This document shows, piece after piece, positions 11,129-39,080 of a stretch of 64,000 nucleotides of DNA. Each line of letters opens with the position of its first letter. The first letter of the stretch is position 1. A program made the position numbers and the translations under genes. The stretch spans positions 1,120,001 to 1,184,000 of the forward strand of contig CAWFQK010000004.1 in assembly GCA_963817955.1 (NCBI GenBank). Direction: 5' to 3'. A model generated the notes under the pieces. The model saw nothing but the letters and a program-made list of their open reading frames with translations. It ran no database searches and was not told the DNA's origin. This DNA is from an uncultured Gemmatimonadaceae bacterium. GTDB lineage: Bacteria; Gemmatimonadota; Gemmatimonadetes; Gemmatimonadales; Gemmatimonadaceae.

Positions 11129-13678
11129 GTGTCCAACCCTTCCTCCACGTTGTTCACGTCCCCCGCCATCAGGGTGCTCGCGGTGCTTGGTCCCGCGGCG
11201 CTCATGCTCATGGTTGGCGCCATGGGTGCCACGACGTACGGTACGCTCCAAGCGCATAGCAGGCAGGTCGCGCAAACGCGCGACGTCATCGACCGAGGGA
11301 GGAGCGTTCTCGTCGATCTCCTCGACGCGGAGACGGGCGAGCGGGGATTCCTCATCACAGACGACACGCAATACCTCGAGCCGTATCAGCGCGGCACGGT
11401 GGCCTTGCGCGCCGACACGGCGGCGTTGCGTGCGCTGACGCGCGACGATGCTACCCAGCAGCGGCTGCTCGACAGGCTCACGGAGGTCGCCGCGGAGCGC
11501 GTCGCGCTGCTCGACACCGTCAAGACACGACGGCAGACGGACGGGCCAGCGGTCGCGCTGAAAGTGTTCCGCCAGAGTCGAGGCAAGGCACTGATGGACA
11601 GTGCACGCGTCATTATCGCGCGCATTCAGGACGAGGAGGGACGTCTGCTCGCCGCGCGTGAGGCAGCGGAGAGCCGCGCCGCGAATCGTCTCATCTTCGC
11701 GCTCGTGGCCGGCGCGGTGTTGGCGGCCCTATTCGCGTTTCTCATGAACGCGCTGCTCCACCGCAAGGCCGAGCGGATCGCCGCAAGCGAGCGCCTGACT
11801 TCGGAGCAGAACGAGCTGCTGCAGGAACAGACGCTCGAGCTGGAGTTGACCAACGAACAGCTTCATGATCAGCAGGCCGAGCTCGAGATGCAGACCGAGG
11901 AGTTGCAGGCCACCGCTGCGTACCTGGAGGAACGGACCGAGGCGCTCACGGAGAGCGAGGCGCGTTTCCGCGCCGTGTTCGAGCGATCGCGCGTCGGCAT
12001 GGCGCGCGTCTCATTCTCCGGAGCGCGGTGGCTCGAGGTGAACGACGCCTTCCGAGAGATGCTCGGATACACCCAGGACGAGTTCCTCGCTACTCCATGG
12101 CCCGAGATCACCCACCCGGACGACGTGGACTCGGATCTCATACCGTTCGGTCGTATGGCGGTGGGCGACCTCGAGTGGTATGCAGTCGAAAAACGCTTCA
12201 TCCATAAGTTCGGCCACCATGTGTGGGCGCGGCTCACTCTCTCGCTGGTGCGCGACTCGGCCGGGCGTCCGGACTATGAGATTGCCGTCATCGAGGATGT
12301 CAGCCGACAGCACGCGGCCGCGGCAGAGCGGGAGAGGTTGCTCGCCGCCGAGGAGCTGGCCCGCAGCCGAGCCGAGACGCTGCAGCACATCTCAGCCTCG
12401 CTATCCGCGGCGCGCACACCTGCTGACGTAGCCGCAGCGACCATCAGCGCCGGCATAGTCGCCGCGGACGCTTCGCGTGCGGCGGTCGGACTTCTCGACG
12501 ACGACAACGGGCGCACCGTTGAGCTCCTGGCGCACAGTGGATACACCGAGGCGCAAGTCGCGCGGTTGCTCGACATGCCCATGGGGGGGCTGCTCCCGTT
12601 GGCGGACCTCGTACGAACCCGTGCGGCCGTCCTGATCGGCCGGCATGATGAAACCGTCGTACGCTACCCCGCATTCGCCAAATGGATTGACGCTGCCGGC
12701 TTCCACGGATCCGCGATGTTCCCGCTCTTCGTCGGTCAGGGAGCAGAGGAACGCGTGCTGGGCTACCTCGGCTTCGGTTTTGAACGAGACCGCGAGTTCA
12801 CCGAGAGCGAGGTCGCGTTTCTCGAGACGGTAGCGCGTCTCTGCTCTCAGGCGCTCGACCGCGCGCGTGCGTACAACGCGGCGGAAGCGGCCCGCCACGA
12901 GGCCGAGGCGGCAAATCGGGCAAAATCGCAGTTCCTGGCAACGATGAGCCATGAGTTGCGCACACCGCTCAACGCCATCGCGGGCTACGCTGACCTAATG
13001 GAATTGGAGCTCCGGGGCCCGCTCACCGAATTGCAGCGCGCCGACCTCGCGCGTATCAAAGTCAGCGGGCAGCACTTGTTGAGCCTGATCAACGACGTCC
13101 TGAACTTTGCGAAGATCGAGGCCGGGCGGCTCGAGCTACAGTTCTCGCCCGCATCGGTGAGCGCCCTCGTTGCGGGGATCGATCCGCTCATCGCGCCGCA
13201 GTACGGTGCCCGCGGGCTCGCCTACGCCTTCGAGTGCGCCGACGACGCTGTCGTCTGGGCCGACGCCGAGAAAGTGCAACAGATCCTGCTCAACCTGCTC
13301 ACGAACGCGGGGAAGTTCACGGCCCCGGGAAACACGGTGACGGTCCAGTCCGAGCAGGATGACCATGTCGTGCGAATCCACGTCCGCGACCGCGGCCGCG
13401 GGATTCCCGCGGACAAGCTGGACCGCATCTTTGAGCCGTTCGTGCAAATCGATCGACACCTGACGCAGGCGAGCCAGCAAGGAGTGGGGCTTGGGCTCTC
13501 GATCAGCCGCGAGCTCGCACGGGCAATGGGAGGCGACCTCACTGCCGAGAGCACGCTCGGGGAGGGCTCGACGTTCACCCTGGTGCTCGTACGACACGAC
13601 CCAACGGCCGTCCGCTCTATCGGGAACCCGCTCACCGACGGCGCACAAGCAGCGTCGGTACGCCCGCTCACAGACTGA
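11129..13678 (+). CDS. Sensor histidine kinase CHASE3-PAS-GAF-HisKA-HATPase
   Basis: DAETGERGFLIT..YLEPY (CHASE3), ITHPDD (PAS), MSHELRTPLN, NLLTNAGKFT, GVGLGLSIS. Confidence 0.93.
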   Translation: MSNPSSTLFTSPAIRVLAVLGPAALMLMVGAMGATTYGTLQAHSRQVAQTRDVIDRGRSVLVDLLDAETGERGFLITDDTQYLEPYQRGTVALRADTAALRALTRDDATQQRLLDRLTEVAAERVALLDTVKTRRQTDGPAVALKVFRQSRGKALMDSARVIIARIQDEEGRLLAAREAAESRAANRLIFALVAGAVLAALFAFLMNALLHRKAERIAASERLTSEQNELLQEQTLELELTNEQLHDQQAELEMQTEELQATAAYLEERTEALTESEARFRAVFERSRVGMARVSFSGARWLEVNDAFREMLGYTQDEFLATPWPEITHPDDVDSDLIPFGRMAVGDLEWYAVEKRFIHKFGHHVWARLTLSLVRDSAGRPDYEIAVIEDVSRQHAAAAERERLLAAEELARSRAETLQHISASLSAARTPADVAAATISAGIVAADASRAAVGLLDDDNGRTVELLAHSGYTEAQVARLLDMPMGGLLPLADLVRTRAAVLIGRHDETVVRYPAFAKWIDAAGFHGSAMFPLFVGQGAEERVLGYLGFGFERDREFTESEVAFLETVARLCSQALDRARAYNAAEAARHEAEAANRAKSQFLATMSHELRTPLNAIAGYADLMELELRGPLTELQRADLARIKVSGQHLLSLINDVLNFAKIEAGRLELQFSPASVSALVAGIDPLIAPQYGARGLAYAFECADDAVVWADAEKVQQILLNLLTNAGKFTAPGNTVTVQSEQDDHVVRIHVRDRGRGIPADKLDRIFEPFVQIDRHLTQASQQGVGLGLSISRELARAMGGDLTAESTLGEGSTFTLVLVRHDPTAVRSIGNPLTDGAQAASVRPLTD

Positions 13679-13839
13679 CGGCGCGAACTGCTTACGGCGC
13701 CAACTCCCTGACTGCGCCAACTCCCTGACTGCGCCAACTCCCTGACTGCGCCAACTCCCTAAATACGCGAACTCCCTGACGGCGGCGTACGGCGCGGACT
13801 CCCTAAATACGCGAACTCCCTGACGGCGGCTTACGGCGC
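13677..13839 (+). repeat. 17-bp ACTCCCT array, copy A
   Basis: Head GACGGCGCGAACTGCT, then GACTGCGCCAACTCCCT-type units, tail GACGGCGGCTTACGGCG. Confidence 0.92.
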
Positions 13840-14307
13840 TGCCGGACGCGGGGCGTCAGAGTTGTAGATATCGCGCGAGACCCGCCAATTGCCCGCGGAT
13901 TGACGCTGCCAGATTTCCAAATACTTGCCCGAGTCGGGCTTCGACCGGCCGCCCCACGACCAATACCGGCCGCGCACGTAGGCCAGATCATGATTGCCCT
14001 CGATCTCGACCTGCTGCCACCGGTACATATACGCCGTGGAATCTGTGGACTCATACGCCGCGATCGCCGCCTGGCCGACGAGCGCAGGCGAATGTTCGGG
14101 CATTGATACGGCATCCGCCGTGTAGTACGAGCGGGCGTAGCCAGCGAAGTCTTTTGGCGGCCGGGCGTTGATGATCGCGAGAGTAGAGTCGGCCGTGCTA
14201 CGGATGGCGCGCCGGTCGGCGTCCGACAACGCCGCGGGTTGCGAGCGGGCGCACCCGATGCCGGCCGCGAGGACAAGCACCGCAAACGATTCGCGCGGGC
14301 GAGTCAT
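13831..14307 (-). CDS. SnoaL/NTF2-like (DUF4440/YybH) protein with lipoprotein-like signal
   Basis: YYTADAVSMP..LVGQAAI, GKYLEIWQRQSAGNWRVSRDIYNSD; CAGGAGG RBS. Confidence 0.85.
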   Translation of the reverse strand: MTRPRESFAVLVLAAGIGCARSQPAALSDADRRAIRSTADSTLAIINARPPKDFAGYARSYYTADAVSMPEHSPALVGQAAIAAYESTDSTAYMYRWQQVEIEGNHDLAYVRGRYWSWGGRSKPDSGKYLEIWQRQSAGNWRVSRDIYNSDAPRPAAP

Positions 14308-14521
14308 ATCAGCCTCCTGATTGAACGAGCGAACTGGGAGCACGCCATAAGAAGCCGTCTGGCCCGGAATCATATAATGGCGCGCCGAGCGCACGATTGC
14401 CAACGCAGGATCTGCTCGCCCGAATGCCCGACGGTAGAATCCACAGCGCCCTCTGTCACAGCCCCCCCGCTGATGACGGCGTCCGCAGGATGCCCGAGGC
14501 CATTCGAATCAGCCCCCCGAA

Positions 14522-14797
14522 ATGCGGTCCATTGAGAAGCGCTCCTCCGGGATCGCGACACTTGTTGTCATCACCGTCCTGACCTCGATCGCGACCCTCG
14601 CGAATGGCTTTGCGTTCGGCGACGTTCCGATTGTCGCGAACAATCCGGGCGTCCACAGTCTGGCGCGGCTGTGAGATCTGTTTGGCCAGAGCTATTGGCC
14701 GCCGGAAGTGACGATGGCGCTCTATCGGCCCGTCCCCATGTGCGGCGAGTATGTTTTGAAGGAGACACTCGCTGCGAAGCACCCGCTGAAACAGTAG
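14522..14797 (+). pseudogene. N-terminal remnant of a TMTC-like GT-C glycosyltransferase, paralogous to 22956-24716
   Basis: Manual translation NGFAFGDVPIVANNPGVHSLARL*DLFGQSYWPP..LYRP aligns with NDFASDDVTLIGNDQRIHSLGNWSLFFTKTYWPP..LYRP; in-frame TGA at 14672. Confidence 0.75.
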
Positions 14798-14815
14798 TTG
14801 GCGATTAGGGGGATC

Positions 14816-16258
14816 ATGCCGGACGCACCCGCTGAAGAACCAGGACCAGGACCAGAACCAGCCGACACCGTGCAGGCGCGCGACCTGGCGGAATCGTCGC
14901 GTAGCCCCCTCGGGCCATACGAGACTCTGCTGAGTCACACGCTGGCGCTGGTGGCCAATGGGGCAGAATTGCCTCGCGTGCTCGATTCCATTGTACGGGG
15001 CCTGGAGTCGGCGTATCCCGCGGCAGTGTGCAGCATCTCGTTGCTGGCTCGCGGACCGAAGCAGCTCGACAGTGCGCCAGTCCCAGGCCCATCAGATTTC
15101 TATAACGAAGCCCTCGCCCGCACCGAAACCTGCATAGGGTCATGCTGGTCTCAGCCAATCCGCGCCGCATCAGGCCAGACGTCGGGCACGCTCACCGTCA
15201 GGCATCGTGACGAGCGCACGCCCGGCGACGCCGACCTCGCCATCCTCGAACGATCCGCCCACCTCGCCGCCATTGCCGTCGAGCGGAGCATCGACACCGA
15301 TCGACTGCGTGAGAGTGACAGCTTGTTTCGCTTGCTGACCGAGGATACCCGATTCGTGGTCTGGAAGGTGGACCGCGATCTCCGTTTCACCTATATCAGC
15401 CCGGCGGATGAACGGTTGCGCGGCTACACGGCCGGCGAGATGATCGGTCGCTCCGTTCTCGAGATGTTCACCGAAGAAGGCATTGCCGCCCTCACCGAGA
15501 TCATGCACGCGAGGCGGGTGGCCGAACAGCACGGCACTCGGACGGGCAGCTTGACGTTCGAGTGCCAGCATCGCTGCAAGGATGGCAGGCTCCTGTGGGG
15601 AGAGATCTTCTCCACCCCCGTGCGTGACGCACACGGCGCGATCGTCGGCTTCCACGGCATCACTCGGGAAAACACGGAGCGCCGGCACATGGAGGAGCAG
15701 GTACGACAACTGGCCTTCTACGACACGCTCACCAACCTCCCCAATCGTCGTATGCTCGACGATCGCTTGAGCCAGACCATGGCGGCCAGCAAGCGCACTG
15801 GTCGCTGGGGAGCGCTGATGTTTCTCGACCTGGATAATTTCAAATCACTCAATGACACCCAGGGCCATGAGATCGGTGACCTGCTGCTGATCGAAGCAGC
15901 GAATCGACTGCGACGATGCGTGCGCGAGACGGACACCGTCGCACGTATTGGCGGCGATGAGTTCGTCGTGATGCTGAGCGGATTGGATGTGGATCCCGTC
16001 GTATCGAAATCCCAAGCGAAGACTGTGGCGGACAAGATCCGCACCACGCTCTTGGAACCGTACCGGCTGACGACGCAGCGCGAGGCGAACGCCGGCACCG
16101 TCGTTGAACATCACTGCACCGTGAGCATCGGCGTGGCGTTGTTCGCGGGTCATGGAGCCAGCGCGGAGAACATTCTCAAATGGGCTGATATGGCGATGTA
16201 TGGAGCGAAGGAGGAGGGGCGGAATCGGATACGAATTCATGACGGCGCGAACGGCTAA
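14816..16258 (+). CDS. GAF-PAS diguanylate cyclase
   Basis: YDTLTNLPNRR, FLDLDNFKSLND, ARIGGDEF, ADMAMYGAK. Confidence 0.93.
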   Translation: MPDAPAEEPGPGPEPADTVQARDLAESSRSPLGPYETLLSHTLALVANGAELPRVLDSIVRGLESAYPAAVCSISLLARGPKQLDSAPVPGPSDFYNEALARTETCIGSCWSQPIRAASGQTSGTLTVRHRDERTPGDADLAILERSAHLAAIAVERSIDTDRLRESDSLFRLLTEDTRFVVWKVDRDLRFTYISPADERLRGYTAGEMIGRSVLEMFTEEGIAALTEIMHARRVAEQHGTRTGSLTFECQHRCKDGRLLWGEIFSTPVRDAHGAIVGFHGITRENTERRHMEEQVRQLAFYDTLTNLPNRRMLDDRLSQTMAASKRTGRWGALMFLDLDNFKSLNDTQGHEIGDLLLIEAANRLRRCVRETDTVARIGGDEFVVMLSGLDVDPVVSKSQAKTVADKIRTTLLEPYRLTTQREANAGTVVEHHCTVSIGVALFAGHGASAENILKWADMAMYGAKEEGRNRIRIHDGANG

Positions 16259-16415
16259 CGGCGCGGACTCCCTAACGGCGCGGACTCCCTGACGGCGCTG
16301 ACTCCCTAACTACGCTAACTCCCTGACGGCGCTGACTCCCTAACTACGCTAACTCCCTGACGGCGCGGACTCCCTGACGGCGGACTTACGGCGGACTTAC
16401 GGCGGCTTACGGCGC
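16241..16415 (+). repeat. 17-bp ACTCCCT array, copy B
   Basis: Same head, body and tail units as copy A; overlaps last codons of the cyclase. Confidence 0.92.
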
Positions 16416-16712
16416 AGACACAGTCGCATCCCTTTGGAGTAGGCGCGCCGTAGCGTCTGGTGAGCTGATCGAGGGAAATCACAATAGGCTTCCGAGGCGA
16501 GGAATCCACAATGTCGCCGGCGCTGACGACCCGACCAAAGATGCGGTTGCTCATCCATTCCGGCAACGACCCGATGAGGATCTGTGGATCGTCGCCGGAT
16601 TAGATGGTTCTAATCTTGCCAGAATGCCCACTGCGCCGTCGCGCCGCAGGGAACATGAGCACGATCCCTGACCGGCCTCCCTGGCGATCACGGCCGTTGA
16701 GCGAACGATCGG

Positions 16713-18650
16713 GTGACGACGCCCCGTCGGCCAGGCGACCGACCCAGTGCACAACCGCGATGCGGCAATCGGGATCAGGTGACACAGACAAAGACGATTT
16801 CATCCGTTTCGGCGACGCCGCCGCTCTCACCCAACGAACGGCGCGCGCTCCGGCGGAAGCATGGCACGCGATTGCCGCTCGTGCTCGTTCTCCTGTCTCT
16901 CGCGCTCGCCGTGCTGCTGCCGCGGCTGATGCAGCGACGGATCGCACATCTCCGCGACGTCGCCTACTTGGCCGAGCCGGCCCGTCTGCGTATCGCCCGA
17001 CTCCAGCTCGATCTCGTTGTCGAGTCAGCCGCGCGGCGCGGGTACCTGCTCCCCGGTTACCCCGATCTGGCAAATCAACTCGGCACCGCACAGATGGAGC
17101 GGCGGAGCGTCGAGCGGCAGCTCCTCGCCGACGCTCGCCGACTGGATGTTCCGCCATCCGTCGCGCTCACGCGGGCCGTTGAGAATTTACAGGATCTGGG
17201 CAATCGCCTCGACTCGCTCGGCTCCGCTTCGGGCATTCGTCCGCAGGCGTCGGCGGCCCTGGCGGAGCAAGAGCAGTGCGCCAACGAGATTCACGCACTC
17301 TCGGACAGTCTTGAGAGCAGGGTCGCGCGCGCAACCGAGAGCCGCCGTGCATCGATGGGCCAGACGGAGGATGTGGTCGGGCTGCTCACTGCAGGCCTCG
17401 TCCTTATTGGTTTGGGAGCGGCATTTCTCGTGGCTCGGCTCGGAAGTCACTACCGCAAGCTGGCGCTTCGCCTCGACGAGACCGAAGCGCGGTTTCGTCA
17501 GATCGCCGACAACCTGTGTGCCGTTGTCTGGTTGAGTGAGCCGGATATGCGGCGCCAGCTCTATGTGAGCGTCGCCTACGAACGTATCTGGGGACGCTCA
17601 CGAGAGAGCCTCGAGACCGACCCCAACTCCTTCATGGAAGGCGTCCACCCTGATGACCGAGAGCGGGTGCGCGCCTCGCTGGCTGACCTGGCTCATCGCG
17701 CCGCGGATGTCGAGTTCAGGGTGGTTCGGCCGGATGGCACCGTGCGTTGGGTCTGGAGCCGCGGGTTTCCAGTCCGAGACAACAGCGGGCGGATCTTCCG
17801 TGTAGCGGGAATCATGGAAGACGTCACCGAACGCCATGAGTATGTGCTCGAACGCGACACGCTGCTCGCGAGAGAGCAGGACGCACGCGCGGTAGCGGAA
17901 CGCCGCCAGTCGGCCCTCGAACGCGTGACCGACAGCCGCGGGCGGCTCATCCGCGGCTTCACCCATGACGTCAAGAACCCGCTCGGCGCGGCCGACGGGT
18001 ACTTAGCGCTGCTCGAAGAAGGGACGTTCGGAACTCTCGTCGAAACGCAGCGCGAAACGCTCGCCAGAGCTCGACGGTCCATTCATCACGCGCTGGAGCT
18101 CATTGGGCAGTTGCTCGAGGTCGCGCGTGCCGAGGCCGGGCAGGTGGAGATCCACCAACAAAAGACTGATGTCGTCGAGGTGGTGCGAGACGTCGCGGAC
18201 TCGTTCCGGAAAACGGCGGAGGCGAAGGGTCTCGCGCTTGCCGTGGAGCTCCCGGAACGACCTCCGACTGTCATGACCGACGCCTCGCGCCTGCGGCAGG
18301 TCGTCGACAACCTGGTGTCGAACGCCGTGAAATACACTCCGGCGGGCGGCCACGTCTCGGTGAATTGCTGCGAATCGTCCAAGGGCGTTGAGCAAGCCGC
18401 TCCCCAAGTCGTCATCACGGTTTCAGACGACGGCGGGGGTATCCCGAAGGACAAGCTCCCGATGTTGTTCATGGAGTACAAACGGTTCAGCCCCGAGGCG
18501 GCAGCCGGCGAGGGAATCGGGTTGGCCATCAGCCAGAAAATCGCGGAGGCATTGGGCGGTGAGATAACGGTCGACAGCAAAGTAGGTCTGGGGAGCACTT
18601 TCGCACTCCGGCTCCCAGTCGCACCAAGCCGTCATCCCACGCAACCGTAA
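16713..18650 (+). CDS. Membrane sensor histidine kinase with PAS domain (start uncertain)
   Basis: Two TM helices, VHPDDRERV PAS, FTHDVKNPL H-box, NLVSNAVKYT, GIGLAIS. Confidence 0.9.
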   Translation: MTTPRRPGDRPSAQPRCGNRDQVTQTKTISSVSATPPLSPNERRALRRKHGTRLPLVLVLLSLALAVLLPRLMQRRIAHLRDVAYLAEPARLRIARLQLDLVVESAARRGYLLPGYPDLANQLGTAQMERRSVERQLLADARRLDVPPSVALTRAVENLQDLGNRLDSLGSASGIRPQASAALAEQEQCANEIHALSDSLESRVARATESRRASMGQTEDVVGLLTAGLVLIGLGAAFLVARLGSHYRKLALRLDETEARFRQIADNLCAVVWLSEPDMRRQLYVSVAYERIWGRSRESLETDPNSFMEGVHPDDRERVRASLADLAHRAADVEFRVVRPDGTVRWVWSRGFPVRDNSGRIFRVAGIMEDVTERHEYVLERDTLLAREQDARAVAERRQSALERVTDSRGRLIRGFTHDVKNPLGAADGYLALLEEGTFGTLVETQRETLARARRSIHHALELIGQLLEVARAEAGQVEIHQQKTDVVEVVRDVADSFRKTAEAKGLALAVELPERPPTVMTDASRLRQVVDNLVSNAVKYTPAGGHVSVNCCESSKGVEQAAPQVVITVSDDGGGIPKDKLPMLFMEYKRFSPEAAAGEGIGLAISQKIAEALGGEITVDSKVGLGSTFALRLPVAPSRHPTQP

Positions 18651-18733
18651 GCCAGGCGGCTGGTGGCTCGCGGCTCGTTGCCGCCGCCCGTGACGGGGAC
18701 TCCCCTTCGCGCACCCGCCCTTTATCTTCGCGT

Positions 18734-19870
18734 ATGCATTCTCTCGTTCGCCTCACCTGGATCGCCGTCCTGGGAAGCGCAGGGTTGGGAGCGTGCGGCG
18801 GTAGCGCCGACTCCACGACACCCGTCACGCCCGTTACGCCGGTCGTGCCGGCCGCCGGCATGCACGGTCTCACCGTCCTCTTTCCCCCCACCAAGCCCAA
18901 CCAGGCCTACTACTCGGACGTGCTCACGTACCTCGTGAACAACCCGAGCGCACCGGTGGACGGGGCGAATTTCTCTGTCAGTTGGAGTTCGGTGGACAAG
19001 GGACCGGGCGCGAATCCGCAATACGATTTCTCGTCCGTGGACAGCCTGCTCCAGCCGTGGATCCACGCCGGCAAGAAAGTGAACCTCACGGTATCGGGCG
19101 TCACGTATGGAACAGGAACGACGTCGCTGGTCGCGACGCCTGCCTACGTGCAATTGCAGGCGAGCATTCTCAACTGCACCAGCTCATCCCCGGCCTTCTG
19201 GCAGCAAGGCTACTTCAAGAACTATCAAGCATTGATGGCGGCGGTCGTCCAGCACTACGGCAGCAACCCCTCTGTGGGATACATCCGATTCGGACTGGGC
19301 ATTGGTGGTGAAACCACGATCGTCATGGGCTTCAGCTCCGCGGACTGCCAGGCGCAGCTCACCGCGGCCGGGTTCAGCACTCCGGTGTGGCTCGCCTATC
19401 TCGGCCAGATGCTCGATTATGAGAAGTCATTGAATTCTCCAGTGCAGTTGATGGTGGGGATCAACATCCTGAATTTCAACAATCCGGACTACAGCATACC
19501 GGATTCGACCGCGGCCATGGCCGTGCGCAACGGCATCGGGTTCGGAAGCCAGGGACTTCAGGCCGGCGACATCACGGACTATGCCGCCGGCCGGCCCTGC
19601 ACCGTAGACTGGTGCAAGATGTTCGTGAAGTACGACGGTACAGTTCCCCTCGAGCTGCAAACGGTCGCGCTCAGCGATCCGAGTGGCGCCGGCATGACCG
19701 GTTCACTGGTGCCGCTGCTGCAACTCGGCGTGCAGCTCCACGCGCGGAATTTCGAAATCTACTACGAAGATTGGCTGACGGCGTTCGACCCGGCCTACCC
19801 GGCATATGCGCAGTATCACACCGCGTATCAGCAGGCCATTCTGACTACGTCGGCGGCGGTCGCCAAGTAG
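18734..19870 (+). CDS. Lipoprotein with putative glycoside hydrolase TIM-barrel (GH42/agarase-like)
   Basis: LGAC lipobox; VSWSSVD..YDFSSVD, HYGSNPSVGYIRFGLGIGGE. Confidence 0.6.
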   Translation: MHSLVRLTWIAVLGSAGLGACGGSADSTTPVTPVTPVVPAAGMHGLTVLFPPTKPNQAYYSDVLTYLVNNPSAPVDGANFSVSWSSVDKGPGANPQYDFSSVDSLLQPWIHAGKKVNLTVSGVTYGTGTTSLVATPAYVQLQASILNCTSSSPAFWQQGYFKNYQALMAAVVQHYGSNPSVGYIRFGLGIGGETTIVMGFSSADCQAQLTAAGFSTPVWLAYLGQMLDYEKSLNSPVQLMVGINILNFNNPDYSIPDSTAAMAVRNGIGFGSQGLQAGDITDYAAGRPCTVDWCKMFVKYDGTVPLELQTVALSDPSGAGMTGSLVPLLQLGVQLHARNFEIYYEDWLTAFDPAYPAYAQYHTAYQQAILTTSAAVAK

Positions 19871-19889
19871 ACAGATACCAGGCACTCAC

Positions 19890-20368
19890 ATGCAACATCT
19901 TTTCGCCCTCCCGATCATTGCATTCGCCGCGCAGGCGGCGGGCGCCCAGACACCGGCCCCTTCCTGTTACGCCACGCCAGCGTCGCTGACGCCGGCCGCG
20001 TGGCATACGCCCACCCACATGGCTTCGTCCTGGACGAGCCGGGCCGCTTGCTCTTCATGTCGTCCGAAGGCAATGCCACGCTCCAGGTGATCGATCTCCG
20101 CACCATGCGAGTCCTTGGACATCACTCGGTTGGCGCAACGTCCGACGTGCTGGCCTGGGATGCGGGGTGGCGACGTCTATACGTGGCGTCGGAGGGTGGG
20201 GTCCTGTCCGCATTCTTTCTCGATGGAACCACACTCAAGCCGGTTGGAGAGGTACGCGCGCGCCATGCGCATACCGTGTCCGTCGACCCCCGTACTCACC
20301 GCGTCGATCTGCCGCTCGAGAACATCGACGGGCACCCGGTGCTGCGCATCTATACGCCGGCACCGTAG
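19890..20368 (+). pseudogene. Disrupted YncE-like beta-propeller gene (signal peptide and C-terminal blades in different frames)
   Basis: 19890 frame gives a signal peptide; 20000-20368 frame gives HPHG, DVLAWD..RRLYVASE, AHTVSVDPRTHRV. Confidence 0.65.
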
Positions 20369-20439
20369 CTCGACTGCGCGCGACGCAGCCGGTTCAATCT
20401 GAGCGACGCATGATCGGCGCGAAACGCGTGCGCCGCATC

Positions 20440-21729
20440 CTATCCCAGTACGCGCTCGCAGGCCATCGCGACGCCGAGTAGCGCTTCGGTCTCGTTTCGC
20501 CGGCCGACAAGTTGCAGCCCCACCGGAAGCCCATCGACGGGAATGGGGATGGAGATCGCCGGATGTCCCGTGATGTTGAAGAGCTGCGTGAGCCGTAACA
20601 TTGCCGCGCGTATGCTGAGCGTCTCTCCGGACGCTGCGTCGATAACCACATCCACCGCGCCAAGCTTGGGCGCGACGATGGGCAACGTCGGGAGCACAAG
20701 TGCGCTGCATCCGTCGAGCGCAGCGTCCACCGCGTGCCGCAGCGCCTCACGCGCGTCCCGCGCCTGGAGATAACTCACCGCCGAAATGGTGCGCCCTCGC
20801 TCGAGACGTTCGCGCACCGCGGGATGATAGTCGGCCGCGCGCGTGGCGAGCGTGGCCGTATGCCAATGGGCGGCCTCGGGCAGCGAGATGTTCACGTACG
20901 TGTCGCTGATACTCGCGCTGCCCTCGATCGTTCGCGACAGCATCGTCACCCCCGACGTGCAGAGCCGCGAGACCGCGTCGTCGAAGGCCGTGCGCACCTC
21001 ATCGCTCAACACGTCTGTGAAGTAGCCGCCCAGCGCTCCGAGCGTGAGGGCACTCGGCGGCGGCGACTCCGCGTGTGGAACAGCGCGGCCGGCGAGCACC
21101 GCCCAGAGGCTAGCGGCATCCCCAACAGAGCGCGTGATGGGGCCGACGGCATCGAACGTCGCACTCAGCGGCACGACGCCGTCGAGCGGCACCTCGCCGA
21201 GCGACGGCTTGAGGCCGACGACACCGCATGCCGCGGCGGGAATCCTGATCGATCCGCCAGTGTCCGAGCCAATGGACGCGACCCCCATTCCGAGCGCCAC
21301 CGCCGCCGCGGAGCCGCCGCTCGATCCGCCCGCCGAGCGCGTGACATCATGCGGGTTGTGGACTGCACCATACGCCGATTCTTCGCTCGTAGTACCGAGC
21401 GCGAACTCATGAAGGTTCGTCTTTCCGATCAACACTGCGCCGGCCCGACGCAACCGCTGCACGACCGTGGCATCGTGCGTCGCGACGTGATCCGCGCGCA
21501 CTCGCGACGCGGCGGTGGTCGGCTGGCCGGCGACGTCGATGAGATCCTTGACCGAGATCGGCATTCCGTGCAGCGGGCCACTATCGATGCCCTGGCGCTC
21601 GTCGTCGTCAACCGCGCGTGCGGCAGCCCGCGCGCCCTCGGCGTCAACGAGAATGAACGCATTGGTGCGCGCGCCATGATCCGCAATGGCGGCGAGACTG
21701 GTCTCGAGCAGGTCGACAGCGGTGGGCAC
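20440..21729 (-). CDS. Amidase signature family protein (probable GTG start 21729)
   Basis: GPLHGMPISVKD, GKTNLHEFA, GGSSGGSAAAVA, GSDTGGSIRIPA. Confidence 0.93.
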   Translation of the reverse strand: MPTAVDLLETSLAAIADHGARTNAFILVDAEGARAAARAVDDDERQGIDSGPLHGMPISVKDLIDVAGQPTTAASRVRADHVATHDATVVQRLRRAGAVLIGKTNLHEFALGTTSEESAYGAVHNPHDVTRSAGGSSGGSAAAVALGMGVASIGSDTGGSIRIPAAACGVVGLKPSLGEVPLDGVVPLSATFDAVGPITRSVGDAASLWAVLAGRAVPHAESPPPSALTLGALGGYFTDVLSDEVRTAFDDAVSRLCTSGVTMLSRTIEGSASISDTYVNISLPEAAHWHTATLATRAADYHPAVRERLERGRTISAVSYLQARDAREALRHAVDAALDGCSALVLPTLPIVAPKLGAVDVVIDAASGETLSIRAAMLRLTQLFNITGHPAISIPIPVDGLPVGLQLVGRRNETEALLGVAMACERVLG

Positions 21730-21781
21730 GGGAGTATGCTGGGGGGTACGCGGGCGGAGCGAGGTCTCAATCCAAGCAATC

Positions 21782-22783
21782 CTACAGTAATGCATCGCTG
21801 ATGCGTGCAATCTCTTCTGCTTCTCTCCAGCGGCTCTCGAGCTCGGCCAACTCGCCGTGAAGCGCGTGGCGCTCTTCCTGCTCATGGGCAGTCATCTCGA
21901 GGGCGAGCCGTTGTGAGACACGAAGTCTGCCAATCCGAAACCACGGATCTGACAATATCGAGCCGCCATCGAGGTCTCCGGCCCAAAAGGCTCGCCGCGG
22001 TCGGTCGGCCGTCGCAATGGTCATGAACGCATCGTCCGCGTCCTTGAAGCCTTCGAGCAGATCGAGTGCTTCATGCCTTGTCCGCTCTCCCGCACCGTGG
22101 GAATTGATACTCGGCAATAACACTATAGCGGCCGAGCGTGCGTCTCGACCTCGCACCGTGATGTACTTGTGACCACCGGGCGCACCTTGACTGGCGACTG
22201 GTATTCGCAGTTCATATCCGGCATCGGCGTTCGGACGCAGTTCGATGTGCGCCAACATTCGAGCGCTCAATCCAACCAGCGTGTCGCCAATACGCGTGCG
22301 CACCCGAATTCGCTTGCGCGAGGCCTGATTCGCGAGACTAAACCCGAAATTCGCGGCAACCAGTCCCATTCCTCCAATGGCAATGCCGGCTCCGTATAGC
22401 GCCGCGGCAGCAGCGGCAACGGTTCCGACGGCGATAGCGTGCTTCCGCCGACGCCGGCCAAACTGGTCCCCGTACCTCCAGGCCGCCATCTCCGGGCGTA
22501 GCGGGTGCCCGACGCGAATCAGATCCGTTCCATCTCGCATCCGCGCCATTCCAATCTGATCAGTCGAGAACCGCAGGGTGGTCGAACGAAAGCCGATTTC
22601 ACACTCTTCGAGCGCTTCCCACCGCTCTTCAATGGGACTGAGGTTCCATCGCTCGCACTTGTGGCAGACGGCCCAGAGGCGCCCGGTGGCGCCGTCGAAA
22701 GCGAGGCGCCGGCCGATTGGAAAGTGCTCGATCGAGTCGTTTGCGCCGAGGGGCGCATGACAAAAGATGCATGTCGAATACAT
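21782..22783 (-). CDS. Conserved hypothetical protein with N-terminal CxxC/CxxC zinc site and one TM segment
   Basis: MYSTCIFC..VCHKCERWNL; C-terminal RLALEM..WREAEEIARISD. Confidence 0.75.
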   Translation of the reverse strand: MYSTCIFCHAPLGANDSIEHFPIGRRLAFDGATGRLWAVCHKCERWNLSPIEERWEALEECEIGFRSTTLRFSTDQIGMARMRDGTDLIRVGHPLRPEMAAWRYGDQFGRRRRKHAIAVGTVAAAAAALYGAGIAIGGMGLVAANFGFSLANQASRKRIRVRTRIGDTLVGLSARMLAHIELRPNADAGYELRIPVASQGAPGGHKYITVRGRDARSAAIVLLPSINSHGAGERTRHEALDLLEGFKDADDAFMTIATADRPRRAFWAGDLDGGSILSDPWFRIGRLRVSQRLALEMTAHEQEERHALHGELAELESRWREAEEIARISDALL

Positions 22784-22955
22784 CGCGCTGTCTACGGAGT
22801 AAGGGTCGTGACGGCAGCGGAGGTGTCGCAGACCCGTCGGCCACCGGCGCCCAGCCTAAGATTACCCGTCAACCAACACGTCGTGAGATATTCGGTCAAA
22901 ATGCGGCCAACGTGTTTCCCGACTCCGATGAATCAGCGCCCCTCGACAGAGCAGA

Positions 22956-26016: not shown

Positions 26017-26221
26017 TGGGCGCTCGGAGTAGGAGTCAGCGGACACGACGAGGGCTCGTCGCATTCACTCGTCGCGAGTGGACCAGCGAGCGTGCGTCGG
26101 GAAATTCCGGGCACATGCGCTCGCAACAGCCGTACCGCAATGCGCCGGTCCGCCGAACCGTGTCAGGCTATGGCCAGCGGTGCCAACCCATCTCGACGCG
26201 AAGAGAGCTCACCATGTCGGC

Positions 26222-26411: not shown

Positions 26412-26412
26412 G

Positions 26413-26580
26413 ACCGCCGTCAGCCGCCGTAAACCGCCGTCAGCCGCCGTCAGCCGCCGTCAGGGAGTCAGCGCTGTTAGGGAGTCAGCGCAGTTAGGGA
26501 GTCAGCGCAGTTAGGGAGTCAGCGCAGTTAGGGAGTTGGCGCTGTGAGGGAGTCCGCGCCGTCAGCAGTTCGCGCCGTAA
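26413..26580 (-). repeat. 17-bp ACTCCCT array, copy C (reverse orientation)
   Basis: AGGGAGTCAGCGCAGTT units, head AGCAGTTCGCGCCGT, tail of GCCGCCGTCA decamers. Confidence 0.92.
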
Positions 26581-27059: not shown

Positions 27060-27213
27060 GTGGCTCTCCGAATGAAGTAATCGATACGCGCCACAACTTG
27101 TTCAAGTAGGCGCGGTCGCGGGCGGAGCGCTAGCCCGGAAGCGCCGGAGGACTATCCTTAAGATTGTCGCCGCACCTCCCGAAACCGGCCGACACATCAG
27201 CAACCGTCGCCAC

Positions 27214-28314
27214 ATGTCTCGTCCACTCATCCCACCTGTCATGCGCCTATCCACCCTCGCCCTCGTTGCCGGGCTCCTCGCGTCGTCACCCGCCGGTGGC
27301 CAGAGACCCAGCGCCGTACCGGCCTCGCCGTGCACCACGCCAACGACGGTCTGCGAGCGCTGGATAACATTCGGCAGCGGACCGGCGCGATCGATGGTGT
27401 ACTCCACCTATCCGCTCGACGTGCCGAACGCCAGGATCACACGGGCCCTCGTCATGGTCCACGGTGCCGGGCGCAACGCCGACCATTATTTCGAAACGTC
27501 GGCCGCAGCGGGGTTTCTCGCCGGCGCGCTCAACAACACGATCATCATCGCCCCACGCTACATCGCGGGCACCGACAAACCGTCGGCAAATGAAGTCATG
27601 TGGCCCGAGGGCGGCAACTCCTGGCGCGCCGGCGGCATGTCGCCGACCAATCCGTCGATCTCCGCGTTCGACTTCATGGACGAGATCGTGCGGAAGCTCG
27701 CCGACAAGAAGACGTTCCCGAATCTCACGAAGATCGTCGTCGCCGGGCATTCGGCAGGCGGCCAATTCGCCACGCGCTATGAGATGACGAACAAGGTCCA
27801 CGGGACGCCGGGTGTGAGCCTCAGCTACGTCGTCGCCAATCCATCGAGCTACGCCTGGCCCGCCGCCGTCAGACCGCTCCCCACCGGTGACGCCGATCCG
27901 GCGACCGCCGACAAGGAAGCGCTGGGACCGACTGGAGAAAAGGTGCACACGCAGTTCACCTACGGCCCCTTCGACACCACCAAAGCCCGCAACTACAATC
28001 GCTGGCCCGCAGGGCTGGAGAATCGATCCGGGTACACCGCGGGCATGAGCGACGATCAATTGAAGCGGCAGCTCGTCGAACGTCCGACGACGTACCTCCT
28101 CGGTCAGGTGGACGTGCTGCCGCTCGGCGGATTCGATTCGTCACCGACGGCCATGGCCCAGGGCCCGACACGCCGGGCCCGCGGGGAAGCGTTCGTCAAA
28201 TACGTCGATGAGACGCTTGGCGCGAAGCATATTGCAATCATCGTTCCGGAATGTGGGCATAATGATAGGTGTATATTTACTACTAATATTGTATTTCCGA
28301 GTATTTTTCCGTGA
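27214..28314 (+). CDS. Secreted alpha/beta hydrolase
   Basis: Signal peptide, VHGAGRNAD, GHSAGGQ nucleophile elbow, ANPSSY, CGHN. Confidence 0.88.
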   Translation: MSRPLIPPVMRLSTLALVAGLLASSPAGGQRPSAVPASPCTTPTTVCERWITFGSGPARSMVYSTYPLDVPNARITRALVMVHGAGRNADHYFETSAAAGFLAGALNNTIIIAPRYIAGTDKPSANEVMWPEGGNSWRAGGMSPTNPSISAFDFMDEIVRKLADKKTFPNLTKIVVAGHSAGGQFATRYEMTNKVHGTPGVSLSYVVANPSSYAWPAAVRPLPTGDADPATADKEALGPTGEKVHTQFTYGPFDTTKARNYNRWPAGLENRSGYTAGMSDDQLKRQLVERPTTYLLGQVDVLPLGGFDSSPTAMAQGPTRRARGEAFVKYVDETLGAKHIAIIVPECGHNDRCIFTTNIVFPSIFP

Positions 28315-28508
28315 ACGGCGCGAACTGCTGACGGCGCTGACTCCCTGACTGCGCCAACTCCCTGAACGGCGCTGACTCCCTGAACGGCGCCAACTCCCTG
28401 ACGGCGCTAACTCCCTGACGGCGGCTAACGGCGCCAACTCCCTGAACTGCGCGGACTCCCTGACGGCGGCTTACGGCGGCACACGGCGGTTTACGGCGGT
28501 TTACGGCG
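28314..28508 (+). repeat. 17-bp ACTCCCT array, copy D
   Basis: Head ACGGCGCGAACTGCT directly at the stop codon, body units, ACGGCGGTTT tail. Confidence 0.92.
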
Positions 28509-28592
28509 TGCGTCGATGCAGATGACACAGGTGCTCCCTGTAATTGGCCACGTCCGGCGCGAGGCAACTGAGTCAGTATGACCTCGATGTTT

Positions 28593-28824
28593 GCCGTCGT
28601 AAACCGTAAACCGCCGTCAGGGAGTCAGCGCCGTCAGGGAGTCAGCGTCGTAAGCCGCCGTCAGGGAGTAAGCGCCGTCAGGGAGTCAGCGTAGTTAGGG
28701 AGTTGGCGCCGTAAGCCGCCGTCAGGGAGTAAGCGCCGTCAGGGAGTCAGCGTAGTTAGGGAGTTGGCGCCCTCAGGGAGTTAGCGCCGTTCGGGTGTCA
28801 GCGCCCTCAGCAGTTCGCGCCGTC
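28593..28824 (-). repeat. 17-bp ACTCCCT array, copy E, inverted relative to D
   Basis: AGGGAGT units ending in AGCAGTTCGCGCCGTC. Confidence 0.92.
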
Positions 28825-28887
28825 CCCTCCCCTCAAACGGAATTTGCTACTATCTCTCCCCCACCCCCTTTCCCCCATCGGACTCCT

Positions 28888-30984
28888 ATGTCCCGCAAAC
28901 TCCTACTCCTGCTCGCTCTCGCTGCTGCTCTTCCCGGCCCTGCCGCATCGCAGGCCACCCCGAAACTCCCCGACCGAGCGGTCCGTCGCGACATCCCTCT
29001 CACCAACATGATCCGGCGTGCCTTCGCTGCCGGCACCCGCGACTCGACCGGACGTCCAGGCCGCAACTACTGGCAGCTCTGGACGGACTACACCATCAAT
29101 GCCCGTTTCGAACCCACGACGTCCACCGTCACGGGCCATGAAACGACTGTCATCCACAACCAGAGCGATTCCGCGATGCGCACGATCGTCATGCGCCTCG
29201 ACCAGAACATCTTCTCGCCGAACGTCCCGCGCGCCGAGCAAGTCACGGAGATCACCGACGGGATGAAGCTCACGAAACTCACCGTCAACGGGGAAGCCGT
29301 CGATCTCAATCCCCCGCCGGCTGGGCGCGGTGGCCGCGGCGCTGCTCCGCCGGCCGTGCGACTGGCGGCCTCGGGCATCAACACGACGTCCGCTCGCATC
29401 ACGCTCCCGAATCCCATTGCGGCCAAGGGCACGGCGACGATCGAGGCCGAATGGAGCTTCCGCGTGCCGCGCGCCGACAACGTCCGCGGCATTCGCATGG
29501 GGCGGTGGGCCGACACGCTGTATGAGGTTGCGCAATGGTATCCGCGCGTCGCGGTGTTCGACGATTTGCGACAGGGTGGGTGGGACACCGATCCGTACCT
29601 GGGCCCATCCGAGTTCTATAACAATTTCGGGCACTTCGATGTGAAGATCGACGTGCCGGCAGGCTGGATCGTCGGCGCCACGGGCGTTCTCCAGAATCCC
29701 CAGGAAGTGCTCTCGGCCACCGCCCGCGAGCGCCTCTCGCACGTACTGGAATCCGATTCCACTCGCACCATCGTCGGGGCGAACGAGCGTGGGCCTGGCG
29801 TCGCCACCGCGGCGGGCGACCGACTCGTCTGGCACTTCGTCGCCGACACCGCCGGCGACGTCGCGTGGGCAACGTCCAACCAATACGTTTGGGATGCTAC
29901 CCGCGCCACGATTCCGGGCAAGGGACCGATCCCGGTGAACATGTTGTACCTCCCGGGACATGCGACGGCATACGCCAACGGCGGGCCCGTCGCGCGACAC
30001 GCCCTCGAGTTCTACTCGAAACTCTGGATGCCGTATGCCTTCCCCGTGCTCACCATGGTTGACGGGCCAGAAGGCGGAATGGAATACCCCATGTTCATCA
30101 TGTCGAGCGTGGGTGCAGCAGACCACGAGACCGGACACGAGTGGTGGCCAATGATGGTCGGCACCAACGAGACCTGGTACGGCTTCATGGATGAGGGATT
30201 CAACCAGTACATGAACAGCCTGTCGCGATTCGACTCGCAGCACCAGCCGGCGAACCTGGATGGCCCGGGTCAGTCGTACGGACGCATGAGCGGCAACGAA
30301 ACGGAAGCGCCGCTCATGTGGGACGCGAACTACGGCGGCCCCAATTACTCGTTCCAGGCGTACTCCAAGGCGCCGATGATGCTCTCCATGCTCGGCGGCG
30401 TGGTGGGTGACAGCGCCGTGTGGCATGCGATGAGCGACTACGCAAAGGCGTGGCGGTTCAAGCATCCGTCGCCGTGGGACTATGCCTTCTTCATGAGCAA
30501 CGCGCTCAAGGACAAGCAGAAGGAACTTGGCTGGTTCTGGTACTACTGGCTCTTCACCACCGAGTCCGTGGACGGTTCGATCACCGGTATGAAGACTGCC
30601 GGCAACACAACCACCGTCACCGTTCGGCAAGACGGCCAGATGCCCTCGCCTGTGGTGCTCAAGGTGCAGTTCGCCCCGAAAGGTCCGGCGATCAAGCCAA
30701 TGCGCAACAGCAAAATGATCGACAGCGCGACGGCGATCGTCACATGGCCCGTGGACGTCTGGTTCGGCGGGAGCAAGACGTTCAAGGCCGACCTCACCTT
30801 CGGCGCGCGGAAGATCGTGCGCGTGAAGCTCGACCCGGGCTGTCGCTTTCCCGACCGTGACACGGCCGACAACGCATGGCCTCGCGATACCGCAACAGTG
30901 ACTCTCGCGGGCGGCCGCGGCGCTGGTGGCGGCGGTGGCGGCGGTGGCGGCGGCGGTCGTGGTGGACCGGCGTGCACGCCTTGA
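28888..30984 (+). CDS. Secreted M1 family metallo-aminopeptidase
   Basis: GGMEYP, HETGHEW, FMDEG; signal peptide MSRKLLLL. Confidence 0.92.
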   Translation: MSRKLLLLLALAAALPGPAASQATPKLPDRAVRRDIPLTNMIRRAFAAGTRDSTGRPGRNYWQLWTDYTINARFEPTTSTVTGHETTVIHNQSDSAMRTIVMRLDQNIFSPNVPRAEQVTEITDGMKLTKLTVNGEAVDLNPPPAGRGGRGAAPPAVRLAASGINTTSARITLPNPIAAKGTATIEAEWSFRVPRADNVRGIRMGRWADTLYEVAQWYPRVAVFDDLRQGGWDTDPYLGPSEFYNNFGHFDVKIDVPAGWIVGATGVLQNPQEVLSATARERLSHVLESDSTRTIVGANERGPGVATAAGDRLVWHFVADTAGDVAWATSNQYVWDATRATIPGKGPIPVNMLYLPGHATAYANGGPVARHALEFYSKLWMPYAFPVLTMVDGPEGGMEYPMFIMSSVGAADHETGHEWWPMMVGTNETWYGFMDEGFNQYMNSLSRFDSQHQPANLDGPGQSYGRMSGNETEAPLMWDANYGGPNYSFQAYSKAPMMLSMLGGVVGDSAVWHAMSDYAKAWRFKHPSPWDYAFFMSNALKDKQKELGWFWYYWLFTTESVDGSITGMKTAGNTTTVTVRQDGQMPSPVVLKVQFAPKGPAIKPMRNSKMIDSATAIVTWPVDVWFGGSKTFKADLTFGARKIVRVKLDPGCRFPDRDTADNAWPRDTATVTLAGGRGAGGGGGGGGGGGRGGPACTP

Positions 30985-33483: not shown

Positions 33484-33553
33484 GGGTCACGACGGCGTCA
33501 GCCAGGAGATCCGCAGGATGACAGGCATCGTGTGTCCCGTGTCTCGTGTCTCG
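33484..33553 (+). repeat. Degenerate REP end (CAGGATGACAGGC) plus GTGTCTC heptamers
   Basis: Shares GGTCACGA, ACGGCGTC and CAGGATGACAGGC with 270-335. Confidence 0.55.
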
Positions 33554-35510: not shown

Positions 35511-35512
35511 CC

Positions 35513-38060: not shown

Positions 38061-38067
38061 GCAATCC

Positions 38068-38817
38068 CTACTTCTTCAAGACCTTCCCGTCCTCGACCAG
38101 GACCGCATACGCGTAGCCCGAGCCGAAATCTTTGTTCGTGCGAACGATGCCCTTGGCGGTGATGATGTCGCCCTTCGTCGCGCCATCCATCGAGGTCACG
38201 AGGATATCGTTGGTCCCGTCCTTGGCGTCGCCGCTGCCGTCCTGTAGATGGATCCAGTTCTTGCCCATGACGGCTTCGTTGAACTTCACGACCGTACCGC
38301 GGATGGTGACAGACTTTCCAGCGAGGCTCGCCTTCTGGGCCCAAACCTCGCCTACCGTGCGGGCGTCAGCGCCAGTGGCCTTTTCCACCTTGCCCACGAC
38401 GACCGGCGCGGAGGACCCACCCGCGGCAGCATGCGCACCGGCGGCGCCGGTCGCGGCAGTATCCACCGGGGTCAACGTTCCAAAGTAGATCTCGGGGAAC
38501 GTGCGCTTCAGCGACTTGGATTCGAAGTTGGCCATCATCAAGGGGTCGTGAACCGTCACGGTGGTCCCATTCTCGACCTTGGCGGCAGACACCGCGGCCC
38601 AGACTTCGCCCGCGCTCGTCTTGATACGCATGTACGTGTAGCCGGCGGCATCCATGTGCTCCAGAACCGAACCGGTGAGCGGAGTTCCCGTCGCCGCGGC
38701 CGCAGCGGCTGGAGCAGCCGACGCCTGGCCGAGCGGGGTCTTGGCCGCGTCAGAGGACTTGGTCTGGCAGCCAACGACCGCCGTCGCGAGGAAGAGGGAG
38801 GAAAGGGCGCGACGCAT
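38068..38817 (-). CDS. NrfJ-like lipoprotein with OB-fold domains
   Basis: VVGC lipobox; VLEHMDAAGYTYM, MANFESKSLKRTF..IYFG, MGKNWIHLQDGSG, KDFGSGY. Confidence 0.72.
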   Translation of the reverse strand: MRRALSSLFLATAVVGCQTKSSDAAKTPLGQASAAPAAAAAATGTPLTGSVLEHMDAAGYTYMRIKTSAGEVWAAVSAAKVENGTTVTVHDPLMMANFESKSLKRTFPEIYFGTLTPVDTAATGAAGAHAAAGGSSAPVVVGKVEKATGADARTVGEVWAQKASLAGKSVTIRGTVVKFNEAVMGKNWIHLQDGSGDAKDGTNDILVTSMDGATKGDIITAKGIVRTNKDFGSGYAYAVLVEDGKVLKK

Positions 38818-38877
38818 AAAGGGGAGGCTCCTGGAAGGGACTGGGGGAAGGGACTCGAGAAATATATATGAGGGTTT

Positions 38878-39080
38878 GACGGCGCGAACTGCTAACGGCG
38901 CGAACTGCTAACAGCGCTGACTCCCTGACAGCGCTGACTCCCTGACAGCGCTGACTCCCTAACTACGCGGACTCCCTAACAGCGCTGACTCCCTAACTAC
39001 GCGACTCCCTGACTACGCGGACTCCCTGACTACGCGGACTCCCTGACGGCGGCTTTACGGCGGGACTCCCTGACTACGCC
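38878..39080 (+). repeat. 17-bp ACTCCCT array, copy F
   Basis: Two head units GGCGCGAACTGCT, then GACAGCGCTGACTCCCT / GACTACGCGGACTCCCT units. Confidence 0.92.

Follow-up and report, generated by a model that had tools for sequence, protein, structure and literature searches.

For PF05635 (23S_rRNA_IVP), a very large family of four-helix-bundle proteins, we know of no role outside diversity-generating retroelements, and short intergenic tandem arrays in bacteria are usually dismissed as slippage. The closest described relatives of the elements analyzed here are the intervening sequences (IVSs) of rRNA genes, which are excised by RNase III. In Coxiella burnetii, such an element of 428 nt combines a stem cleaved by RNase III with an S23p open reading frame (ORF), beside which two to three heptameric repeats are found, and an old proposal has it that these rRNA elements are mobile (PMC4990558, cited in part here and below). 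Among intergenic repeats, the BOX elements are co-transcribed with their neighbours, form stem-loops and vary more in length the longer their arrays become (PMC3049150, likewise cited in part). Here, we analyzed a stretch of 64,000 nucleotides (the window, C4:1120001-1184000) from the genome of an uncultured Gemmatimonadaceae bacterium, whose 4.53-Mb assembly consists of 9 contigs, has a G+C content of 64% and is 94% complete. The window carries six polar arrays of mostly 17-nt units, which are very probably the arms of an IVS-type hairpin cassette, some still paired and others single. In its complete form, this cassette would have a PF05635 gene in its loop.

The six arrays had been reported in an earlier note on this DNA, and all of them are present, in either orientation, at the places it gave. 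Their hallmark, the heptamer ACTCCCT, occurs 47 times in the window, whereas 100 shuffles average 3.68 copies and never exceed 9, and 45 of the 47 copies fall within the six arrays. All unit types open with N-AC-(G/T/A)-(G/A)-CG. This opening is followed by CGAAC(T/G)GCT in the head unit (16 nt), by C-NN-ACTCCCT in the body unit (17 nt) and by G(A)CT in the tail unit (10-11 nt). Tandem Repeats Finder (TRF) assigns a period of 17 to the bodies and of 10-11 to the tails, and detects additional higher-order periods of 34, 44, 61 and 67 nt. From the outside to the inside, the modules run from the head terminus T(G/A)ACGGCGC(G/A)AAC through the body 17-mers to the tail 10-mers beside the loop. The units are contiguous, and a test for arrays of clustered regularly interspaced short palindromic repeats (CRISPR) found no spacers in any of them.

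A genome-wide search for clusters of at least three ACTCCCT motifs returned 20, of which 19 belong to the 17-mer family and one (C4:767 kb) to a 21-mer family. The earlier note had inferred a dispersed family of conserved polarity, and this is borne out by the 13 further arrays found in three other neighbourhoods. Its head-body-tail grammar stands as far as polarity is concerned, since the head, N-ACGGCGCGAAC(T/G)GCT, lies at the outer end of 18 of the 19 arrays by eye, the exception being the arm C4:306419; an automatic parse makes 16 of the 19 begin with a head. The order is not strict, however: in three arrays a head turns up again within the body, and in about six some tail units stand among the body units. 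These interleaved modules and the higher-order periods together show that blocks of several units have been duplicated.

Fourteen of the arrays form seven inverted pairs with their tails facing each other, and the other five are solo arms. The resulting 12 elements are strongly clustered in four neighbourhoods, with five elements within 38 kb and another five within 26 kb. They comprise one complete cassette, one cassette with a gene remnant, five gene-less hairpins, one of which lies in the window, and five solo arms, four of which do. When folded as 28305-28830, the window pair yields one long hairpin (-379.8 kcal/mol, z -25.4), and the arrays at 28314 and 28593, which had been taken as separate units, are its two arms. 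Two solo arms tested in the same way fold no better than shuffles, the RNA of arm 13677-13831 being unstructured (z 0.02) and that of arm 16241-16407 having less structure than its shuffles (z +2.66). The unit of the family is the inverted pair plus its loop, from which the solo arms probably derive.

A profile search of the genome with PF05635 identified five genes. One of them (match at C4:1616850-1617152, 58.4-58.7 bits with a cut-off of 33.8) has no stops and an intact frame of 121 amino acids at C4:1616835-1617197, and sits exactly between the arms 1616567-1616675 (+) and 1617229-1617387 (-) of the pair C4:1616567-1617387, 457 kb from the window. A four-helix-bundle gene was among the types that the earlier note had listed for a check of inverted array pairs, and its suggestion of a non-autonomous element fits as well, in that most copies are gene-less and the partner gene lies elsewhere, in this pair. 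The loop of the pair C1:251915-252404 shares 160 bp with the PF05635 gene at 88% identity, which marks it as a remnant of that gene. Comparison of the 121-amino-acid protein with solved structures gave a single match, a weak one (2gsc, E 0.0086). The resemblance of PF05635 to Avd, a protein of diversity-generating retroelements (PMC10053308), offers by analogy a lead towards nucleic-acid binding by the PF05635 protein. Moreover, of the four remaining PF05635 genes, three (C4:1054669, C4:1553199 and C1:472315) are also located between long inverted repeats with heptamer runs. Two of these three share an outer repeat of ~100 nt that is also found at window positions 1-30, 2135-2162 and 2233-2330, and the copy at C1:472315 carries an extra 24-mer array of seven units.

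The layout is not confined to this genome. Homologues of the 121-amino-acid protein occur in 19 of the 30 other genomes of the genus, and at the 30 homologue loci retrieved TRF found a tandem array upstream of the gene in every case and downstream of it in 29, the single miss being due to a contig end. In 26 of these 29, the units of the downstream arm are reverse complements, and 19 of the 30 upstream arms have a period of 16 or 17. The units keep a AACGGCGC core and vary between species in their second half. Finally, the outer head motif GGCGC(A/G)AAC is present in 12 upstream and 11 downstream flanks of the 30 loci. From these arm features we conclude that the three-module arm of 16-17-nt units is, as judged by sequence comparison, a trait of the protein clade and not of this genome alone.

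The arrays themselves are less widespread in their exact form. The exact two-unit pattern is absent from all 40 relatives searched, and among 185,579 species genomes it has four single matches, none of them in an array. With a looser pattern, related 17-mer arrays were recovered in 3 of the 30 other genus genomes, where head-like and tail-like modules and convergent pairs were also seen; in one of the relatives (G008) they lie directly beside a PF05635 homologue. A metagenome scan added three soil contigs with related 17-mers, and in Rfam the whole window is without any family at gathering score. The proposal of an undescribed system thus holds in part: the family is not in Rfam and its pattern forms no arrays in the species genomes, whereas its build is related to that of ORF-bearing 23S rRNA IVSs.

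Filled, gutted and short states of a cassette site were observed at one conserved locus. One 17-mer pair of this genome lies between the gene for RNase E/G (rng) and rplU-rpmA, a gene order found at 25 loci across the genus, the spacers of which range from short ones through gene-less hairpins to cassettes with a PF05635 gene or its remnant between heptamer arms (Table 1). One of the enclosed genes was confirmed as PF05635 at 131.9 bits. The insert is always found between the rng stop and a conserved promoter-like block of rplU. Genus-wide (L051-L079), this block reads GTTGACACAAC, followed ~17 nt later by TA(A/G)CTTTA(C/T)AGGCT, and it forms the right limit of all inserts. At a second site, between dnaJ and mnmA, a 16-mer cassette directly follows the dnaJ stop in three species (L089 in G001, L090 in G007 and L088 in G011), and this genome has a solo heptamer array there (C4:952430-952600). 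The dnaJ-mnmA cassette begins inside the stop codon of dnaJ. The last 8 nt of dnaJ (TGAAGTAC) recur in inverted form at its far end in G001 and G007, so that the stem reaches into the host coding sequence, and the enclosed gene of G007 is inverted relative to those of G001 and G011.

Table 1. Window arrays, genome-wide neighbourhoods of the 17-mer family and states of the rng-rplU spacer. Positions without a contig name are window coordinates.
Feature	Position or loci	Strand	Content or length
Solo arm	13677-13831	+	head, 17-mer body with two interleaved tail units, tail
Solo arm	16241-16407	+	head, 7 body 17-mers, 3 tail 10-11-mers
Solo arm	26414-26579	-	head, 6 body 17-mers, 4-5 tail 10-mers
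Left arm of gene-less hairpin element	28314-28501	+	head, body with one interleaved tail unit, 4 tails
Loop of hairpin element	28502-28610	.	no gene, no detectable four-helix-bundle gene remnant
Right arm of the same hairpin element	28611-28824	-	head 63 nt upstream of next gene start (28888)
Solo arm	38878-39071	+	two heads, 8 body units, tail, one further body unit
Neighbourhood	C1 214.9-252.4 kb		9 arrays
Neighbourhood	C4 306.4-306.8 kb		2 arrays
Neighbourhood (window)	C4 1133.7-1159.1 kb		6 arrays
Neighbourhood	C4 1616.6-1617.4 kb		2 arrays
rng-rplU, short spacer	9 loci		83-149 bp
rng-rplU, gene-less hairpin	3 loci		269-318 bp
rng-rplU, PF05635 gene or remnant between heptamer arms	11 loci (8 intact)		463-754 bp
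rng-rplU, other arrays	1 locus		745 bp
rng-rplU, gene-less 17-mer pair	1 locus (this genome)		462 bp

We then consider where the arrays lie relative to genes. All 19 are located between protein genes and none inside the 23S rRNA gene. In 13 of the 19 arrays, the head overlaps the stop of a gene reading into the arm or is placed between -18 and +9 nt relative to it, and several host genes have a TGA made up of a T plus the GA of the head. The remaining six heads are found 60-206 nt upstream of a divergent start, and five of them belong to the distal arms of pairs. In the window, arm 13677-13831 takes up the entire spacer between two convergent genes, its head beginning 2 nt within the TGA of a histidine kinase gene (11129-13678) and its tail ending at the stop of a DUF4440 gene (13831-14403, by Pfam). 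A GGDEF gene (14798-16258) terminates within the head of arm 16241-16407 (...HDGANG-stop) and a DUF5946 gene (26562-26993, minus strand) within that of arm 26414-26579 (...YGANC-stop). The head of arm 28314-28501 is directly 3' of the TGA of an alpha/beta-hydrolase gene (27214-28314). Arm 38878-39071 is the sole window arm with a head not abutting a stop; it lies 60 nt from the start of a divergent gene (38068-38817), and for 1385 nt past its tail there is no called gene. The solo arms 16241-16407 and 26414-26579 are convergent, 10 kb apart and separated by seven genes. Their likeness of 0.85 is among the highest of all arm pairs; it stems mostly from equal unit numbers, and therefore we do not read the two as one element.

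The preference for stops extends to arrays in general, as 67 of the 317 intergenic arrays of the genome lie at most 15 nt from a stop, where 28 are expected and at most 42 were seen in 500 same-spacer placements. Starts, in contrast, show no excess (19 arrays compared to 22.5 expected). Such an enrichment, together with the 13 of 19 17-mer heads at stops, would suit regulatory or structural elements of gene ends, that is 3'-untranslated sequences which bind protein or RNA or replace intrinsic terminators and are under selection at stop codons; the pairs would then be two arrays that share one spacer and the four-helix-bundle gene an occasional lodger. The five solo arms, the lack of structure in the RNA of single arms, and the fact that terminator-like sites in window 13000-30000 are no commoner than in shuffles (9 compared to 10.3) agree with this. 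Nevertheless, we regard it as improbable, because the distal arm of five pairs lies 63-206 nt upstream of a start and abuts no stop, because whole composites including their loops recur at unrelated sites, and because in 29 of the 30 loci of the protein clade the gene is found between two inverted arrays. Moreover, the family is restricted to four neighbourhoods, unlike a general gene-end signal. Rejected as well were anti-Shine-Dalgarno mimicry by ACUCCCU (the 3' end of the 16S rRNA is CACCTCCTT, and GGAG precedes 13.5% of 2021 called starts) and a role as Rho sites (by hand count the body unit has 41% C and 29% G and is not G-poor).

How do the elements spread? The composites C1:214909-215258 and C1:221651-222047 are almost identical from head to head, with loops of 95% identity, and have unrelated flanks, so at least some pairs have been copied as whole units. 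The loop of the window pair has no further copy in the genome, and its local alignment with the interior of the gene-bearing copy scores 18, compared to a shuffle mean of 17.7. The idea that the gene-less loops are gene remnants was dropped, since just one of the six matches the PF05635 gene.

Long terminal inverted repeats, gene-less copies and copies with unrelated flanks are what a conventional miniature inverted-repeat or REP-type element would leave behind if it were mobilised in trans by a DDE or Y1 (RAYT) transposase. A possible 6-bp direct repeat (GACGTT), seen by eye only, also flanks the copy between rng and rplU. At the seven pairs, however, the longest direct repeat measures 2-5 nt, exactly as in mismatched controls (2-5 nt). 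Y1_Tnp (PF01797) has no match in the genome at its 94% completeness, and no transposase domain was detected in the 60 flanking proteins scanned, ISL3-type ends not having been searched for. In addition, the units lack palindromic symmetry, and an arm on its own does not fold. Taken together, this makes mobilisation by such a transposase very improbable. As for the search for empty sites and target duplications that the earlier note had recommended, short spacers do exist at rng-rplU (9 of 25), but neither an empty site for the window arms nor any target duplication was found.

The earlier note had also favoured copying from a short template. Indeed, the fixed polarity and the conserved core with few variable positions per unit could be explained if a reverse transcriptase or a telomerase-like enzyme laid down the arrays unit by unit. 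This is hardly credible in light of the duplicated blocks of two to four units, tail units included, and of the interleaved modules; the higher-order repeats of 44 and 61 nt fit slippage or unequal exchange instead. One-directional addition also leaves unexplained why paired arms carry their units in inverted sense. The single reverse transcriptase of the genome (L046, C4:732178-732693) is of the retron type, its best PADLOC match being RT_II-A (2e-43) and its match to the NCBIfam retron St85 family falling below the cut-off, and neither a unit-like sequence within 3.5 kb nor any array motif nearby was found. It adjoins a fragment of an IS256-family transposase.

For the hairpin cassette, we propose the following course of events. 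Copying would act on the composite, consisting of arms plus loop, and would mostly reach nearby sites; its route would involve neither a DDE nor a Y1 transposase and leave no target duplication. Unit numbers would afterwards drift through slippage and block duplication, and the loss of one arm would give rise to solo arms. An insert directly after a stop would be tolerated because every unit carries TGA or TAA; since 17 is not a multiple of three, successive units give stops in three frames. Read-through of a pair would produce a long RNA hairpin. A more far-reaching version, which we consider rather unlikely, is that the four-helix-bundle protein and the tandem-repeat arms form a self-contained, transposase-free propagation system. 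An Avd-like multimer would recognise the units, an arm would be a row of binding sites, and the unit length would be set by the protein clade (7 nt in some, 16-17 nt here). The conserved head would act as the terminus from which the hairpin is copied to a position immediately behind a stop codon, the probable intermediate being a DNA hairpin or a strand switch, and one gene copy could serve gene-less hairpins in trans. In a class seemingly without RNase III, long hairpins might escape cleavage, which would allow the wide spread of intergenic arrays.

Several observations weigh against the hairpin cassette as the common origin of the arrays. One of the seven pairs has the gene and one the remnant; the loops of the other five pairs, including that of the window, show no similarity to the PF05635 gene, and therefore the arms are the sole basis for tracing these pairs to a gene-bearing parent. 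None of the five PF05635 genes has arms that match any of the genome's three largest array families, and thus a cognate gene is not needed for arrays to become abundant. Arm similarity within pairs (0.51-0.84) compares with 0.69 +/- 0.09 between pairs. Concerted evolution of paired arms was rejected, as arms within a pair are no more alike than arms of different pairs. The order of units holds little history, and therefore it could be the solo arms that came first. Gene limits were set by a custom codon-usage caller (3974 genes) and were checked with Pfam for 60 flanking proteins. The abutment to stops can in part result from compact spacers, in which only the stretch between the stop and the next promoter tolerates an insert, although four elements, solo or paired, abut a stop even where 200-500 nt of their spacer is free. 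Empty sites matching the arms of the window were not found, because the relatives are too distant or do not have the flanking gene: a DNA query with 12400-14403 retrieved from relatives paralogous kinase domains alone (64-85% identity), and a search of the 30 other genus genomes for the DUF5946 gene gave no homologue. Among sequencing runs, three low-depth soil DNA runs from one study and no RNA run were identified for this genome, and the contigs of the three gave short pieces, none of which spans an array in an informative way. Finally, RNase III was not found in the genome, the genus or the class sample. In this genome neither PF14622 nor PF00636 has a match, and TIGR02191 matches none of 31 genus genomes and none of 46 class genomes sampled (this one included). 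Outside the class but within the phylum, this profile detects the enzyme in 14 of 15 genomes (E ~1e-62), suggesting an apparent class-wide loss of rnc.

The 17-mers are part of a larger repertoire of repeats. Genome-wide, TRF found 530 array loci (54 kb), 380 of them intergenic (39 kb). The main families are GACACGR heptamers (78 arrays), AGAGAACTGCA 10-13-mers (76), TGTCATCCTGAGCGAAG-type 20-mers (39), the 17-mers and AGTTGTG heptamers (16). Different array families often adjoin in one spacer, for example at window 60-330. Inverted repeats of ~90 bp made of heptamers (ACTCACA, ACTGATC), at window 30-110 and 2045-2130, flank a 1.4-kb composite (425-1841) in which 21-mer sub-arrays follow one another in a fixed order. 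Window 1860-1975 is AT-rich, and long open frames extend over 627-1841 (minus) and 635-1918 (plus). Large 21-mer composites were detected by TRF at eight further loci (e.g. C2:122.6 kb, C4:245 kb, C4:588 kb, C4:765.7-767.2 kb and C5:101 kb), between several of which 21-mer consensus units recur, and one 21-mer sub-unit has CGC-AACTCCCTGA in common with the 17-mers. Solo heptamer or octamer arrays (GTGTCTC / GAGACAC(C)) are present at window 10128-10160, 33532-33553, 47406-47502 and 61048-61092. Arrays of the GTGTCTC type form the largest family of the genome (78) and make up the arms of none of the five PF05635 genes; at window 10128 and 47406 a TGA lies a few bases upstream (reading frame unverified). 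A CRISPR locus with several arrays of 60-nt period is found at C9:137-147 kb.

In summary, the case links a complex, polar family of 17-nt arrays to the PF05635 gene family. The unit type is shown to be a property of the protein clade across the genus, which makes a direct binding experiment possible. Moreover, gene-less and single-arm derivatives appear to have spread locally without a recognisable transposase. Given the apparent class-wide absence of RNase III, such hairpins cannot be processed here in the accepted way, and the host is therefore a natural test of what else such elements depend on.

Finally, we compare the cassettes with known systems. Like REP/BIME repeats with their RAYTs, the arrays are mosaics that occupy intergenic sites at gene 3' ends, in many cases where two genes converge; unlike these short palindromes, which are served by a Y1 transposase, their units are not palindromic and no Y1_Tnp was found. 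With Foldback transposons such as Galileo (PMC3573991) they share internally repetitive long terminal inverted repeats, variable arms and a variable or absent middle. Galileo-type elements, however, are eukaryotic, have a transposase in their autonomous copies and produce target duplications, and no homology is implied. The resemblance to BOX of Streptococcus pneumoniae (boxA, boxB in n copies, boxC) lies in fixed end modules around a middle of variable number. BOX, as far as it is described in the parts cited, has terminal inverted repeats, target duplications and a single short stem-loop, whereas here the arm itself is the array and it takes two arms to make a hairpin (PMC3049150). Unlike in BOX, no target duplication is seen here, the loop can hold a protein gene, and no sequence relation exists, as judged by the lack of an Rfam match.

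Much closer are the heptamer-armed four-helix-bundle cassettes, which likewise lie between genes, carry the gene in the loop of inverted tandem-repeat arms and have gene-less copies. In place of uniform heptamer arms, the present family has 16-17-nt units organised into head, body and tail, many solo arms and a unit type that is clade-wide in the genus. Similar to the IVSs of 23S rRNA, the cassette has terminal inverted repeats that form a stable stem with, in its complete form, a PF05635 / S23p gene in the loop, short tandem repeats beside the ORF that are strain-variable there (GACAGAT in Coxiella, 2-3 copies), and decay of the ORF (PMC4990558). It differs from them in being located between protein genes and not in rRNA helix 25 or 45, and in having, instead of a 28-bp stem, arms of 110-215 bp that are built from 16-17-nt units in three modules (PMC4990558). 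A further difference is that most copies here are gene-less or single arms and that RNase III was not found in the sample of the host class. Our literature search, which extended to sources outside subscription journals, returned no paper on such cassettes outside rRNA or with tandem-repeat arms. Thus, compared to the described systems, what is new here is the three-module arm of 16-17-nt units tied to one protein clade, the local spread and clustering of gene-less and solo forms with their abundant solo arms, and a host class in which RNase III was not found.

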